From Candidatus Amesbacteria bacterium RIFOXYB1_FULL_44_23 (lineage in GTDB: Bacteria; Patescibacteriota; Microgenomatia; CAZETR01; Amesbacteraceae), in contig MEXR01000048.1 in the NCBI GenBank assembly GCA_001773775.1, positions 1-38,251 on the forward strand: 38,251 nt of DNA, read 5' to 3'. Below are positions 6,106 through 16,616 of this stretch, in pieces. The notes under the pieces were generated by a model. The model saw only the letters and a list, made by a program, of their open reading frames with translations, was not told the DNA's origin and did not search any database. Made by a program: the position numbers and the translations under genes. Within the stretch, counting starts at the first letter, position 1; each line of letters opens with the position of its first letter.

Positions 6106-6231
6106 GTGACCCCAAGGGTCGTAGTTCAGAACCAGATAATCCCCGAACTCATTCAATATTATAAACTGTTTGCCTCTCAGATCTCTAGCTTCGACTTCCA
6201 GCCTCAATATAACTACGCTTAGGGATTAGAA
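6106..6231 (+). repeat. 126-bp direct repeat copy 2 (family-2 tail/att scar)
   Basis: GTGA-17nt-CAGAAC; frame VTPRVVVQNQIIPELIQYYKLFASQISSFDFQPQYNYA*. Confidence 0.9.
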
Positions 6232-6255
6232 CCAAGATAATAGTATAATTAATCA

Positions 6256-11974: not shown

Positions 11975-13447
11975 TTAGGCTTTAGAAGCAGACGGCTTAT
12001 TATCTTTCCTGGCGTCGATAAGTACGATGTTTTCTGCATCCGTTAAACCCAACCTTTTTAGAATATCCTGCACTCGCTTTAATTCCTTTAAGGTAAAGTA
12101 AATTATCACCTTAATGTTTTTATCGGTATCGTTGGCCTTTTCGTACACTCCTACCTGGTTTTGCAAATTTCTTTCTAATTGGGTATTAGTCGCAAGTTTT
12201 AGTTCGACCAAACTTTTATCGGCAGAGCCTTTAGAAACCTTTACGTCTACTGGGCCACGACCATTATTCACTTCGGTATTAAAGTCGAAGGTGGAACCGT
12301 ACCAGGTCAAGCGATAGGCTATTTTTAGGTCTTCCTCACGCCGTATAGGTTCTCCGTTAACGTAGAAGTACCTGTACCCGTCGTTATTTTCTATTACTGA
12401 CTTTAGGTACTGAACCCGCTGCATGGCTTCCTGGTAGGAGTCTGGGCTGGTTTTATAAAAGTCAGTCTTTTCGCCTAGAAGTAAGGCCAGAGCCTTAAAC
12501 TGCTCGGTATAGACCGTTTCAGAGAATGCCACTTTTTGCTCGCTAATGCTAGTCGCCCTATCGCCGTTATCCTCTTTACGCTTAATGTAATAATCAATTA
12601 GCTCTGGGAATTCGAGAATGGTCTTAATAGCCGCCTCTTTTTCATCCTTCCTTTTTGGCTCTTCGGGCAAGACGCTTTGGAAATAATTATTTACTTTCGC
12701 TCGTAATTCTTCGTTCGAAATTGCATAGGGAATGCTTGCAAATTCGTCTACCAGGTCGTCTTTATTTATCCAGGTTTCGTCCTTCGTAAGCATGTCTTTA
12801 GGAGTTAGAATTACAAAATCACCCTGGAAGCTAGGTAAATAATACCCGTCTTCTTCCCACGACTGGGTGTCATAGTTGAATCGTGCGCGGGGTACACGAA
12901 AATTACGGCAGAGCTTGGGGTCGAGATGTTTTTGTGCGAATACTTGGGTATATTGCAGTAGGTAGTCTTTTATGAGGTTTGTTGTAAAGTCGCTGATATT
13001 ATCTTTACCGACGCCATCTTTTATAAGGCACAACTTTTCTAAATGGGAACTTCTGGTAACTTTTTCCTGGCCGTAGTCGTTAAAAATTCTGGCGAAATTT
13101 TCATTTAATGCCCGCGCAAAATCATTACCTAGTGCGCTTCCCTTATTACCTTCTACCGAAAAGCCGAACCAGTTTTGCTCGACTTCCTTAAAACGATACC
13201 AGGCAGACAATAAGCCTTTGTTAATCGGTTGGGAAGTAGATTTATCACGCAAGAAACGCAGATAAGTAATTATCCCTTCGTGGAGTTGCTGGTACTCTGA
13301 TTTTTTGCTGTTAAAAAGCAGGAAGGGGTCAATAAAAAGAGGTAGGTCGGCGACCAGTGAAATATCGAACGCCCCGTAATCTTCTAGCGCCTTCTTACTG
13401 ATTCCGAAATAATCGGAAAATAATATCTTCGGCTGGTTATTTTCCAT
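11975..13447 (-). CDS. uncharacterised protein with C-terminal PD-(D/E)xK nuclease-like motif
   Basis: E..NGRGPVDVKV....LVELK...Q...Y; N-terminal DLPLFIDPFLLF. Confidence 0.6.
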   Translation of the reverse strand: MENNQPKILFSDYFGISKKALEDYGAFDISLVADLPLFIDPFLLFNSKKSEYQQLHEGIITYLRFLRDKSTSQPINKGLLSAWYRFKEVEQNWFGFSVEGNKGSALGNDFARALNENFARIFNDYGQEKVTRSSHLEKLCLIKDGVGKDNISDFTTNLIKDYLLQYTQVFAQKHLDPKLCRNFRVPRARFNYDTQSWEEDGYYLPSFQGDFVILTPKDMLTKDETWINKDDLVDEFASIPYAISNEELRAKVNNYFQSVLPEEPKRKDEKEAAIKTILEFPELIDYYIKRKEDNGDRATSISEQKVAFSETVYTEQFKALALLLGEKTDFYKTSPDSYQEAMQRVQYLKSVIENNDGYRYFYVNGEPIRREEDLKIAYRLTWYGSTFDFNTEVNNGRGPVDVKVSKGSADKSLVELKLATNTQLERNLQNQVGVYEKANDTDKNIKVIIYFTLKELKRVQDILKRLGLTDAENIVLIDARKDNKPSASKA

Positions 13448-13521
13448 AACATAGGACAGTTAAGTTATTATAACTCACCCAGGGTAACAATTTCATGCTA
13501 TTCTGCCGAAATTATTGCCAC

Positions 13522-13821
13522 CTACTGCGCTAATTTGCTTTCGATAAGTTCTCTAGCCTTCTTAGCGTCGTCGACTTTAATAAAGCCGCCTTCGAGTTTT
13601 TGGTCGCCAGTGCTATGGATGATAATTTTTGCCGCACCACCAGAGATAAACGGAATTTTTACCGCCTGAACTTTTAACTCTACCCCAGAAATGTTTTTAT
13701 AAAACAAGGTTTTAGAGTTATCTACGCCAAGCGCTTTAAGCTCTATAGCTACTCGGTCGTCATAAACGACTAAATGGCCGCCAGTACAGCGTGTCTTAAA
13801 TAATTGTTGCATTAGATTCAC
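13522..13821 (-). CDS. small beta-rich (PH-like) hypothetical protein
   Basis: 99-aa ORF preceded by AGGGGG; alternating beta pattern and terminal helix. Confidence 0.55.
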   Translation of the reverse strand: MNLMQQLFKTRCTGGHLVVYDDRVAIELKALGVDNSKTLFYKNISGVELKVQAVKIPFISGGAAKIIIHSTGDQKLEGGFIKVDDAKKARELIESKLAQ

Positions 13822-13882
13822 CCCCTTTCATAATTTTTAACCTTTAACTTAGGATTCTTATTTTTGCTGGGGGCTTTTCCAC

Positions 13883-14012
13883 AAAAAGCTCCCACCAGCG
13901 ATGGCTTGCGCCACCTGCTACCCTTTCGGATAACAGCCTCGACAGCGCTCTGGTAGGAGCTTGTTGCTGTCGAGGTCTTTGTGCCATGCCCCTTACGGGG
14001 TTTAGGCAACAC
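13883..14012 (-). ncRNA. candidate structured RNA of unknown family
   Basis: Four adjacent hairpins, three with GNRA loops (GUAA, GAAA, GCAA) on the minus strand, plus an alternative 13-bp helix ending in a U-tract. Confidence 0.6.
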
Positions 14013-14028
14013 TAGATTTTATTTAGCC

Positions 14029-14214
14029 TTACGGCTTAGTTGTACTATTCATTATTTTCTGTATGTCTGACAATTTGTATCGTCTATCCTTTCTCTTTCC
14101 TATTCTAACAGCGTTTAGACGGCCTTCGTTATCCCAACGTCGAAGCGTTTCGGGGTTTATCCCTAGTAGTTCGGCCGCTTCCCTAATTTTTATGAGTTTA
14201 CTATTATCATTCAT
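14029..14214 (-). CDS. MerR-like HTH excisionase / recombination directionality factor
   Basis: IREAAELLGINPETLRRWDNEG..R...RRY; divergent from the recombinase operon. Confidence 0.85.
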   Translation of the reverse strand: MNDNSKLIKIREAAELLGINPETLRRWDNEGRLNAVRIGKRKDRRYKLSDIQKIMNSTTKP

Positions 14215-14262
14215 AACTTCTATTAAATTATACTATAATAAACATACGAAAAGTAAAGAACT

Positions 14263-14667
14263 ATGAAAAATAAATCGGATAAGTACAAACTTCCCACAGG
14301 TGACGAATACGAAGGGCTTTTCAACCCAGAAGATTTAATGACCGTGTATTTCGTTAGGAATGGCGTCGGCTATAGGTGGGGTATTCCTTATAAAATTTTC
14401 GCTTCTAGTCGCTTCCAGGATATGAAGGAACCGTACGCAGATAAGGATTTAGTGGCGCTAGGCGGTGTTTTATTCGACATTTTAGTTATCGACAAGTATG
14501 CAATCGACTTCAAGCAAAAGACAGGCGTACAGAAGTTAAGCGTGGTCGTGAGGTCGTCCGAAACCGAGGATAAACAATTACTTCATAAACTGACGGGTAA
14601 GTTTCGAGAAAAAAGCGAAGTACTGAATAGAGATAGCATACCAGGAACTAATAAAGACCATGAATAG
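14263..14667 (+). CDS. hypothetical protein overlapping recombinase start
   Basis: 134-aa ORF with 8-nt overlap with the recombinase. Confidence 0.65.
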   Translation: MKNKSDKYKLPTGDEYEGLFNPEDLMTVYFVRNGVGYRWGIPYKIFASSRFQDMKEPYADKDLVALGGVLFDILVIDKYAIDFKQKTGVQKLSVVVRSSETEDKQLLHKLTGKFREKSEVLNRDSIPGTNKDHE

Positions 14668-16426
14668 TAAGCAAACAGTACCACTTCGGGCGGCAGTTTA
14701 CCTTCGGGTATCGACTGACGACCAGATAGAAAAATACGGCATTCCGCTACAAAAAGCGGCTGTAGACGCTGTAATTAACTCTAAAGGAAAGCTGGACGAC
14801 GGCTCGCCCGCTATGGTGCTTGCAGGAGAGCAATATATTTATAAGGACGAGGGTGTGAGCGGCGCTGACCCACTAGACGAACGACCAGCCTTTCTACGCA
14901 TGAAGGAAGATATAGAAAATGCGCCAGAGGGCGAAAAACCGTTCGATATTGTAGCCGTTTATCGAATTGACAGGTTCGCACGTAAGCTAAAAATTTTACT
15001 AGAGGTAATCGAATACTACGAAGCCCATGACATTCAGTTCATATCTGCCAATGAAAGTATCGACACTTCCACCCCGTTTGGTAAGGCTATGCTAGGTATT
15101 ATCGGCGTAATTGCCGAGCTGGAAAGAGAAACTACAAAAGCCAGAACCCAAGCTGGCAAAGTGCAAGCCATAGAACGAGGGGTCTATATGGGCGCACAAG
15201 CGCCTTATGGCTACCTAAAAGATAAGGACAAGCACCTACAAGTTTTTGCACCAGAGTCTAAAGTTGTCGAAGAAATCTTCGAATTGTTCGTATCACAGAA
15301 AAAGAATACCCAACAAATAGCAGACTACCTAGCTAGTAAGAAAATCCTTACCCCACTTCCTTCGGCAGTTCATTATGGAAAAAGACGAAAGGGACGCACA
15401 AAAGTTAACGACGAATACTTCTGGCGGGATTCTACCGTAAGAGGCATTGTTAAGGATGAAATATATCTGGGAATTTACTACTACAATAAGCACGAAGGAA
15501 AAAAACGCTTAGATAAATCACTCTGGAAAAAATCACCGACAGAACATGATTCCATTATCGACTATGGCACCTTTAGCATGGCCCAACAGCGTATTAAAGA
15601 AGATGTGGCCTTACGTAATAGCGCTAAAGCGGTCGAAAACCACTTATACCTACTATCTGGCCTCTTAAAATGCCACGCATGTTACGACCCATATTCTGGT
15701 CGCGACCCACTAAACTGGTCTGGTACAAGTAAGGTTATAAAGAAAAACGGCAAACGTGCCTACTACTATCATTGTGGGGCTAAAAACTCTAAGAAATACT
15801 CGACTGTGTGTAAAGCAATTCCATTCCCAGCCGATGAAATAGAAGCATTCGTTACCCAGTTTATTAAAGACTTGCTAAGCGACCCAGAGAACGTCTACAG
15901 GCATATTAACACGTTGCAATCTACGAAAATGGATAAAAGGAAGCTCCTAAAAAGACAGGTAGATATAACAAAAATGTTAAATCGAATACCTGGTAGCCGC
16001 CAGAATATAAAGCGCATGTACGGCAAAGGAGACATTACCGACGCAGACTACGACGAAAGAATGGCTAATGTTAAAAAGCAGGAAGCTGATTTAAGGAAAG
16101 ATTTATTAGTAATACAGGGACAAATCGGCGAAGATAAAATCTCGGAAATTTATGCTAGTACCTTTAAGCTGTTCGCGAAAAAATACAAGCCTTTCCTAGA
16201 CGGCCTAATGACCGACAGGCAGGAAGTATCCGACCTAATTCACCTTATTGTCGACAGAGTTAACGTTTATACGCGAAAAGCAACGAAAAAAGACAAAATC
16301 GCAGGCCGAAAAAAGGAAGACCAGGTAATCCCATACCAGGTGAGGATAGATTTACGCTTGCCGCAAGACATTATGCAACGCCTAGCACGGCAAGGTAAGT
16401 TCGAAGTCAGAAACGATAACTTGTGA
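14660..16426 (+). CDS. large serine recombinase (integrase)
   Basis: YLRVST catalytic Ser, DEGVSG, RP, DRFAR, APYGY, Zn-ribbon LLSGLLKCHAC...YYHC, coiled coil. Confidence 0.95.
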   Translation: MNSKQTVPLRAAVYLRVSTDDQIEKYGIPLQKAAVDAVINSKGKLDDGSPAMVLAGEQYIYKDEGVSGADPLDERPAFLRMKEDIENAPEGEKPFDIVAVYRIDRFARKLKILLEVIEYYEAHDIQFISANESIDTSTPFGKAMLGIIGVIAELERETTKARTQAGKVQAIERGVYMGAQAPYGYLKDKDKHLQVFAPESKVVEEIFELFVSQKKNTQQIADYLASKKILTPLPSAVHYGKRRKGRTKVNDEYFWRDSTVRGIVKDEIYLGIYYYNKHEGKKRLDKSLWKKSPTEHDSIIDYGTFSMAQQRIKEDVALRNSAKAVENHLYLLSGLLKCHACYDPYSGRDPLNWSGTSKVIKKNGKRAYYYHCGAKNSKKYSTVCKAIPFPADEIEAFVTQFIKDLLSDPENVYRHINTLQSTKMDKRKLLKRQVDITKMLNRIPGSRQNIKRMYGKGDITDADYDERMANVKKQEADLRKDLLVIQGQIGEDKISEIYASTFKLFAKKYKPFLDGLMTDRQEVSDLIHLIVDRVNVYTRKATKKDKIAGRKKEDQVIPYQVRIDLRLPQDIMQRLARQGKFEVRNDNL

Positions 16427-16496
16427 CTCCACGGGGACTCGAACCCCGGTTACCAGGATGAGAACCTGGTGTCCTAGACCGCTAGACGATGGAGCC
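16424..16496 (-). tRNA. tRNA-Glu (anticodon CTC), CCA not encoded
   Basis: GGCTCCA/TGGAGTC acceptor stem, CCAGG-TTCTCAT-CCTGG anticodon arm, GTTCGAGT T-loop. Confidence 0.95.
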
Positions 16497-16538: not shown

Positions 16539-16567
16539 TTGACAAACCTGTCTCGTTAGAGTAACAT
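16539..16567 (+). promoter_or_regulatory. sigma70-type promoter of greA
   Basis: TTGACA-17nt-TAACAT. Confidence 0.7.
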
Positions 16568-16589
16568 TCTCCGTTGGTGTCTCTTTTTA

Positions 16590-16616
16590 TCCCCGCTTAA
16601 ACGGGGAATATTTTTT
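16590..16616 (+). terminator. terminator-like hairpin in the greA leader
   Basis: TCCCCG-CTTAAA-CGGGGA then ATATTTTTT, between promoter and ATG. Confidence 0.55.

Follow-up and report, generated by a model that had tools for sequence, protein, structure and literature searches.

The stretch of DNA analysed here, referred to as the window, comprises 38,251 nucleotides (nt) of contig MEXR01000048.1 from Candidatus Amesbacteria bacterium RIFOXYB1_FULL_44_23, and the minus strand of its positions 13900-14008 encodes a genuine LOOT RNA, a member of a structured RNA family that has been in Rfam since 2020 as an orphan known from metagenomes only, typed as small RNA (sRNA) and listed without a function. 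Directly 3' of this RNA lies a tail that pairs with the tip of the long P2 hairpin, and this tip:tail helix is a conserved, covarying 3' extension that is absent from the structure line of the Rfam model and looks like a built-in terminator competing with P2. On balance, we favour the view that LOOT is the self-terminating 5' leader and at the same time the small-RNA gene of a cargo cassette, carried by a small serine-recombinase island that integrates at tRNA genes. Our analysis gives LOOT its hosts, the Patescibacteria, with occurrences in 30 of 151 sampled genomes of the phylum, and a genetic home in small serine-recombinase islands at tRNA genes. As few regulatory RNAs and few mobile elements have been described in these bacteria of the Candidate Phyla Radiation (CPR), a shared leader cassette is useful for annotation, and a search model that includes the tail would be better than the present one.

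Identity and core structure of the RNA

A search of the whole window with the Rfam models (cmscan) assigned the RNA to LOOT (RF03000) with 80.9 bits, against a gathering cut-off of 46.4 (E = 7e-14), and the match covers the full length of the model (positions 1-121 of 121). What the original prediction had called an unassigned structured RNA is thus not a new kind of RNA. Besides LOOT, only the tRNA-Glu at 16423-16496 reached a gathering score in the window, a permissive Rfam scan of 13700-14200 added just two chance-level matches, and the genome to which the window belongs has a single LOOT copy.

All hairpins that had been read from the letters alone were found on the minus strand where they had been placed, and they form the LOOT core (13900-14008). 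P1 and P1a, at 14008-13982, read UGCC-UAAA-CCCC[GUAA]GGGG-CAU-GGCA (UGCCUAAACCCC[GUAA]GGGGCAUGGCA), so that a CCUAAA...CAUGG internal loop, in which the CCUAA.../...AUGG elements resemble the 11-nt tetraloop receptor, surrounds a short capped hairpin. The long P2 hairpin follows with a 10-base-pair (bp) helix of CCUCGACAGC (13975-13966) and GCUGUCGAGG (13946-13937), then P3 at 13936-13915 with its GAAA loop (CUGUUAUCC[GAAA]GGGUAGCAG), and finally P4, GGUGGC[GCAA]GCCAUC, whose last base is 13900. This succession of a long P2, a GAAA-looped P3 and a tetralooped P4, nearly without linkers, is the layout of the Rfam family, with which the window copy also shares the receptor-like loop and the GAAA and GNRA loops; the Rfam model, in contrast, ends at P4 and has neither the 3' tail nor the tip:tail helix. 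GAAA and other GNRA loops, as well as receptor-like loops, are RNA motifs, and the minus-strand RNA carries the GAAA loop together with the receptor-like loop, as had been proposed. In the 20 copies collected at class level (see below), C4, U5, A6 and A7 of the receptor-like loop and the A, U, G and G of its 3' side are invariant, and nearly every conserved base of LOOT belongs to the receptor, the GAAA loop, an A-rich linker, the tip or the tail rather than to a junction pocket. Compensatory changes were found for all eight pairs of P3 and all six pairs of P4 in the 35-copy alignment described below. The 161-nt stretch that contains the RNA has a minimum free energy of -71.9 kcal/mol, compared with a mean of -49.0 kcal/mol in 200 dinucleotide shuffles (z = -5.7), none of which folds as well.

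The LOOT alignment came from the Weinberg/Breaker collection (Weinberg et al., 2017, Nucleic Acids Research, PMC5737381); LOOT is absent from the main text of that paper, and the supplement that holds its description lies outside this check. A passage in Rivas (2020; PMC7657543) attributes about 43 base pairs and six helices to LOOT, the Rfam 14 paper (PMC7779021) names it in its account of metagenomic-based RNAs, and the Rfam 15 paper (PMC11701678) mentions two covarying pairs that were added to its structure. Full-text literature searches, which did not extend to the 2017 supplement, yielded only such database and method papers and no functional study of LOOT.

The tip:tail helix beyond the Rfam model

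The tail (GCUGGUGGGAGC, 13899-13888) and the directly following U-run (UUUUU, 13887-13883) start immediately after the last base of the Rfam model and thus lie outside it. On the minus strand, the tail is the 3' arm of a long-range helix whose 5' arm is the P2 apical tip (AGCUCCUACCAG, 13961-13950); AGCUCCUACCAG pairs with CUGGUGGGAGCU (13898-13887), the helix crosses the 10-bp helix of P2, and it runs out into the U-run, which can also pair with an A-rich stretch 5' of the tip and would be the point of termination. A 13-bp alternative helix ending in UUUUU had been predicted at this place, and it is real: it lies just outside the Rfam model, is conserved in 30 of 30 copies and covaries at 16 of 16 pairs.

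These copies were gathered with the Rfam model from the genome of the window and from samples of its family, its class and its phylum, with 14 control genomes in each search. The occurrence is patchy, with LOOT in three of 27 family genomes and 18 of 151 class genomes besides the phylum count given above, and in none of the 14 controls. The 30 copies examined are 20 from the class search, from which the sub-threshold L021 was left out, and ten new loci from the phylum search. A similar tail directly 3' of P4 is present in every one of these Patescibacteria copies, and in every one the P2 tip is the tail's best partner anywhere in LOOT. The tip:tail helix has 11 to 24 bp (mean 15.2). When each tip was paired with its own tail the mean energy was -24.0 kcal/mol, compared with -17.6 kcal/mol for foreign tails; among the 20 class-level copies the values were -25.0 and -17.0 kcal/mol, and the own tail ranked first in 14 of them. 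The pairing also has a strand: 81 of the 456 tip:tail pairs are G.U, and on the opposite strand the helix is weaker (mean -16.3 versus -24.0 kcal/mol), which bears out the strand specificity claimed in the original prediction.

An alignment of the 20 copies with MAFFT and RNAalifold misaligned P2, so that P2 pairs could not be counted there, and for this reason we modelled the conformer containing the tip:tail helix instead. The resulting covariance model, R1, recovered all 30 copies and five IMG/VR contigs at full length with their tails, which gave an alignment of 35 copies. In this alignment (A4), which was fitted to the very structure being counted so that the counts lean towards it, each of the 16 tip:tail pairs has changed on both of its sides, with 94.8% of the cells paired; the whole R1 structure is 96.1% paired, compared with 73.6% in shuffled alignments (0 of 500 reach the observed value) and 37.7-51.1% when the partners were slid. 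The comparison of own and foreign tails needs no alignment and points in the same direction. Even divergent sequences keep the pairing, as in L250, where UGGUUAUCCAACCG pairs with CGGCUUGGGUAACC, and in L013, where ACCCAUCAUAUGGG pairs with CCCAUGUGGUGGG. A U-run of at least three residues follows the tail directly in 28 of the 30 copies, and the A-rich stretch and the U-run extend the helix by a mean of 3.9 A:U pairs in the class-level copies; columns 69-72 and 172-175 of the 35-copy alignment are mostly A:U.

The tip overlaps the 5' strand (GCUC) of a small apical hairpin of P2, and the tail of the window takes this GCUC strand, which P2 otherwise pairs with its own GAGC. When the tail was held unpaired, the P2 apical hairpin formed in all 20 class-level copies. 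A subfamily (L247, L248, L252 and L043) has it in another register, CUGAAC...GUUCAG, and the tail still invades it. The two forms of P2 and tail lie 1.7-12.2 kcal/mol apart in the 20 copies. A covarying helix that crosses P2 and ends in U residues makes the originally proposed "switch or pseudoknot" a fair reading. The helix, its A-rich flank and the U-run have the anatomy of an intrinsic terminator, and transcription termination is predicted from it: a GC-rich helix is followed by a U-run on the transcribed strand, and in place of a compact short-loop hairpin there are two arms separated by about 50 nt, with the 3' strand of P2, P3 and P4 between them, so that the 5' arm is unusually distant.

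In transcription attenuators, such as the leaders of pT181-type plasmids or the expression platforms of riboswitches, a small upstream helix pre-empts one arm of the terminator. LOOT resembles them in that GCUC can pair with the GAGC of P2 or with the GAGC of the tail, and the second pairing ends in a U-run. It differs in that the 5' arm sits in the apical loop of a long hairpin, some 50 nt away, with two hairpins in between. We know of no antisense RNA or ligand of LOOT.

Leader function and competing explanations

The surroundings of LOOT fit a leader. In the window, a -10-like hexamer, TAAAAT (14016-14021, minus strand), recognised by its resemblance to the consensus only, lies 7 nt upstream of LOOT position 1, just past the stop codon of the preceding HTH_17 gene. 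Of the 30 copies, 19 have a hexamer with at least five of six matching positions within the 21 nt that precede LOOT, compared with 16 of 180 control windows. LOOT therefore most likely starts its own transcript. The next downstream open reading frame (ORF; at least 60 codons) is co-oriented with LOOT in 27 of 30 loci, and of the exceptions, L015 lost a co-oriented ORF to the overlap filter. The upstream ORF is divergent in 22 of 30 loci; the entry of the window in this count is a spurious antisense ORF, its true upstream gene being the co-oriented HTH_17 gene. The distance from LOOT to the next start codon ranges from 18 to 213 nt. An overlapping 64-aa ORF, whose conservation at codon level would have spoken against an RNA according to the original prediction, is not conserved: each of the reading frames is interrupted within LOOT in at least 19 of 30 copies, and the copies, 109-133 nt long, include lengths of every class modulo 3, so that this ORF is not a gene.

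On this basis, transcription would start a few bases upstream of P1, and the four-hairpin core would fold first, probably clamped by docking of the P3 GAAA loop on the receptor-like loop of P1. The emerging 3' tail would then invade the P2 apical hairpin, with the loop bases pairing first and GAGC being displaced from GCUC afterwards, and the outcome would be a helix of 11-17 bp between A-tract and U-run, a structure like an intrinsic terminator. Termination at the U-run would free a LOOT RNA of about 125-145 nt, whereas transcripts that escape would run into the cargo, and the helix would itself be regulated. In the window, the cargo is a 96-aa protein and a 490-aa candidate defence protein, and elsewhere it is often a membrane-anchored protein. 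A tail-complementary "anti-tail" (AAAAGCCCCCAGCA, 13865-13878, minus strand) could tentatively be assigned the role of re-capturing the tail in read-through transcripts; its duplex in the window has -15.9 kcal/mol, a value that none of 200 shuffles reached.

Several observations weigh against this leader reading, in addition to the lean of the covariation counts. When the tail was left free to pair, ten of the 20 class-level copies had the tip:tail form as their nested minimum-energy fold and the other ten a fold lacking this helix, and P2 may instead stay closed and carry a partial pseudoknot of some 7-8 bp. A 5' arm about 50 nt upstream, with two hairpins in the loop, makes an unusual terminator, and L018 and L248 have no run of three U residues directly after the tail. 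The anti-tail is clear, in the sense that at most ten of 200 shuffles reach the observed value, in just 11 of 20 loci, and own anti-tails pair barely better than those of other copies (-13.8 versus -11.5 kcal/mol). The downstream genes share no function that would hint at a sensed signal. On the supporting side, contigs from RNA libraries (two metatranscriptome runs of one study) that come from a relative of about 90-95% identity run unbroken over 13565-14153 and across the U-run. This is a weak hint, as assembled contigs reveal neither transcript ends nor strand nor level and may stem from carried-over DNA. In this relative the fold is kept, with a C-to-U change in P1a that retains a wobble pair and a GCAA instead of the GUAA loop.

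The main rival of the leader reading is that LOOT acts purely in trans as a small RNA, for instance in copy control or island immunity or as a decoy or scaffold, with the tip:tail helix and the U-run serving as terminator or 3'-end protection and the downstream gene being unrelated. The Rfam type of LOOT is "Gene; sRNA", the promoter-like box and the terminator-like end would bound just such an RNA (about 125-145 nt), a simple attenuator would not require so elaborate a fold, and both the widely varying distance to the start codon and the heterogeneous cargo would suit an independent RNA. However, a co-oriented next ORF in 27 of 30 loci exceeds what an independent gene needs, and we found no recurrent 12-nt tail-like site (at most two mismatches) within 7 kb on either side of LOOT in 20 loci besides the tail and its paired tip, so that a second tail- or tip-like site is absent from this range; the three 12-nt tail-like matches in the window compare with 1.57 expected by chance. 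In addition, the two LOOT copies of one genome, G136, have identical tips and tails, which does not indicate orthogonality of co-resident islands, and four of the 30 loci have a 10-11-nt copy or near-copy of the P2 5' strand right beside the start codon of the downstream gene, a link between this gene and the fold. We consider a purely trans-acting RNA rather unlikely.

These P2-strand copies are a side observation in their own right. In L244, L247 and L252, the downstream start codon is immediately preceded by 10-11 nt that exactly repeat the P2 5' strand (CCGACCAAGG-like), L006 has a near-copy, and all four lie 19-28 nt past the U-run. Here, the 3' strand of an opened P2 could mask the ribosome-binding region. 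Over all 30 copies, matches to the own P2 strand did not differ from those to foreign ones (7.4 versus 7.1 nt).

It is improbable in our view that the mature RNA instead contains the tip:tail helix as a static tertiary pseudoknot, formed in part while P2 remains closed and with the U-run paired to the A-tract, so that the helix would be neither a switch nor a terminator arm. The pseudoknot was part of the original reading, and the A:U pairs between A-rich stretch and U-run described above would agree with it. Nevertheless, the helix occupies a strand (GCUC) that is also required for the covarying apical hairpin of P2, which 20 of 20 copies have, and intrinsic terminators are characterised by just such a GC-rich helix with a U-run at its 3' edge. 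Furthermore, a full helix of 13-17 bp would use about 16 of the about 20 loop bases of P2 and leave one and three linker bases, which by geometric estimate are too few to span such a helix on a closed stem, so that the full tip:tail helix and a closed P2 are estimated to be mutually exclusive. With the apical hairpin and the tip:tail helix competing for one strand, and a closed P2 leaving no room for the full helix by this estimate, a terminator or switch agrees better with the data than a static knot.

A small-molecule riboswitch with the tail helix as its expression platform would fit the layout of promoter, structured domain, competing terminator-like helix and gene. We nevertheless regard it as very unlikely, since no pathway is shared by the downstream genes, as would be expected with a metabolite as signal: the cargo includes membrane proteins of no recognised family, zinc-ribbon membrane proteins, a DUF4352 protein, nucleases, a subtilase and candidate defence proteins. 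The conserved bases are also not those of a junction pocket, and LOOT is carried by mobile islands rather than by housekeeping operons.

An action as DNA, be it as a single-strand replication origin, which the original prediction had named as an alternative, or as a recombinase site, is extremely improbable: the element is on mobile DNA and single-stranded DNA also forms hairpins, but G.U pairs, a poorer pairing of the opposite strand, RNA-specific loop motifs and the framing by a promoter-like box and a U-run speak for an RNA, LOOT lies 2.4-7 kb from the tRNA junction that is the expected recombination point, and the islands carry primase-helicases, whereas Pfam scans revealed no rolling-circle Rep family (the last 107 of 347 ORFs were compared with four local hidden Markov models (HMMs) only).

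Island, cargo genes and related elements

The window LOOT is next to an HTH_17/MerR-type excisionase-like gene on a mobile element. The 61-aa product of this gene (14029-14214, minus strand), which lies directly upstream, matches Pfam HTH_17 (5.5e-11) and phrog_66, annotated as "excisionase and transcriptional regulator" (9.5e-10); it also matches the PADLOC model mad1 (7.9e-13), probably through a shared helix-turn-helix domain only. The position directly after an excisionase gene, as originally described, is thus true for the window but atypical for LOOT, since an HTH_17 gene lies directly upstream on the same strand in only three of 30 loci (the window, L022 and L247). Divergent from it, on the plus strand, an operon at 14263-16426 encodes a 134-aa protein and then a large serine recombinase of 588 aa (Pfam Resolvase 2.6e-31, Recombinase 2.7e-18 and Zn_ribbon_recom 1e-8; phrog_95 integrase 6e-101). 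The recombinase stop codon meets the 3' end of a tRNA-Glu(CUC) gene identified by ARAGORN (16423-16496, minus strand), which would be the integration site and the right island border.

In the two closest family genomes, the tRNA-Glu and greA locus is kept, the recombinase is absent within about 10 kb, and the similarity to the window stops at the 3' end of tRNA-Glu. The window thus has a large serine recombinase at an integration site, and both the lack of a recombinase there in these two relatives and the patchy occurrence of LOOT are as expected for an integrative element of this type. The island would extend from about 11975 to 16426, about 4.5 kb; its left border could not be placed, as synteny with the relatives does not continue past the tRNA, and a search for direct repeats marking the island ends in the window found none involving the tRNA. 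Its gene set consists only of the recombinase, the HTH_17 gene, the 134-aa ORF and the cargo.

The association with serine recombinases, which had been suggested as a place to look for homologues, holds for the family: according to a local HMM built from ten Pfam-confirmed recombinases, 15 of 20 loci have a large serine recombinase no more than 7 kb from LOOT, and three of the other five loci are cut by a contig end. A recombinase is also present in three of the four LOOT-bearing IMG/VR contigs with usable flanks. In the window and in G013, G005, G122, G064a and G132, the recombinase gene runs up to or into a tRNA gene, and by raw count, a tRNA gene was present in 13 of 23 loci scanned. DUF5659 occurs in ten of 20 loci and a primase-helicase in four. 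The usual order is tRNA, recombinase, small genes, sometimes a primase-helicase, DUF5659, a divergent promoter region, and then, in the opposite direction, LOOT with one to several cargo genes. In G052, G064a, G038 and G064b, LOOT is instead the first element of an operon that ends with the recombinase.

The first cargo gene of the window (13522-13812, minus strand) starts with an ATG at 13812 that is preceded by GGGGGUG, and encodes a 96-aa protein whose family was not recognised: it has no match in Pfam, PHROGs or PADLOC, and shows no homology to the DUF4429/SHOCT protein that follows LOOT in L248 (E = 0.17). The second gene (11975-13447, minus strand) encodes a 490-aa protein that matches PADLOC PDC-M36A (1.8e-22) and phrog_30194 (1.1e-35, of no assigned function) and no Pfam family; by this resemblance, it is a candidate anti-phage defence protein. 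It is one of five among 46 co-oriented downstream proteins that matched PADLOC models. In 11 of 20 loci, the protein encoded first after LOOT carries a strongly hydrophobic stretch at its N-terminus.

Two of the islands, G013 and G005, contain a TerL-like gene (phrog_2, E = 4.5e-25 and 1.8e-26), as does the IMG/VR locus L144. The island of G013 (L004, 10185-17525) and that of G005 (L005, 10178-15266), of about 7-9 kb, have a small ORF before the TerL-like gene, DUF5659 and a serine recombinase at a tRNA gene; G013 also has a primase-helicase, and no capsid genes were seen in either of them. Judged by its sequence matches, this gene make-up is satellite-like. Phage satellites such as phage-inducible chromosomal islands (PICI) and P4-like elements combine an integrase with a primase-helicase and genes for hijacking of packaging, and lack capsid genes; among LOOT islands, a primase-helicase is present in four of 20 and a TerL-like gene in the three named loci. 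To our knowledge, no helper phage of LOOT islands has been described.

The CI RNA of phage P4 and the C4 RNAs of phages P1 and P7 are small RNAs encoded in leaders; their loop pairs with sites on the same transcript, leading to premature termination, they are matured by RNase P, and they have at least two targets. LOOT resembles them in being a structured leader RNA of an integrative satellite-type element and in the pairing of a loop with a complementary site of its own transcript, which is linked to predicted termination. In contrast to them, LOOT has one complementary site, directly after the RNA, and in most loci it heads a cargo operon divergent from the replication and recombinase genes. 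No C4- or CI-type RNA matched at the Rfam gathering score in the whole window. The comparison with P4 CI made in the original prediction is therefore not one of family membership, in view of the missing Rfam match, the lack of a second target site and the cargo position.

As a tentative possibility that goes beyond the leader reading, LOOT may be the control element of an undescribed family of mini integrative satellite-like islands across the Patescibacteria. It would act as a factor-responsive switch in which the tail-into-loop terminator decides on the expression of surface or defence cargo and, in G052, G064a, G038 and G064b, also of replication genes and the recombinase, and would represent an RNA-based lysogeny or immunity device, similar to P4 CI yet unrelated to it.

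LOOT shares with the ROOL and GOLLD RNAs that these are orphan structured RNAs on mobile or phage-like DNA, often near tRNA genes (ROOL is treated in PMC5737381). It is much shorter (about 110-130 nt, compared with about 580 nt for ROOL), and has a conserved terminator-like 3' extension and a gene directly downstream.

A first pattern scan of IMG/VR returned at least 120 stretches, six of which, among the matches listed, passed the pairing filter, and a stricter pattern returned two contigs, both already present in the first scan. Two of the stretches that passed, L025 and L092, which have the same sequence, are not LOOT: R1, run on L025 alone, gave no match. They have a different small structure without the LOOT layout, CCUAAAC...GCAUGG with a CGAAAG-capped 7-bp hairpin, possibly another RNA with tetraloop and receptor.

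The stretch is present in DNA runs labelled as groundwater and soil metagenomes, and the closest named relatives of the lysyl-tRNA synthetase of the window are from Candidatus Woesebacteria and other metagenome-assembled genomes of Microgenomates/Patescibacteria (62-69% identity). Between tRNA-Glu and greA, at about 16560-16600 on the plus strand, a hairpin (CCCCGCTTAAACGGGG) followed by a T-run is kept in the two closest family genomes (alignment A5); it is terminator-like and perhaps marks the end of an upstream transcript or belongs to a greA leader. Elsewhere in the window, a direct repeat of 129 nt with 87% identity connects 2398-2526 and 6106-6234, 3.7 kb apart.

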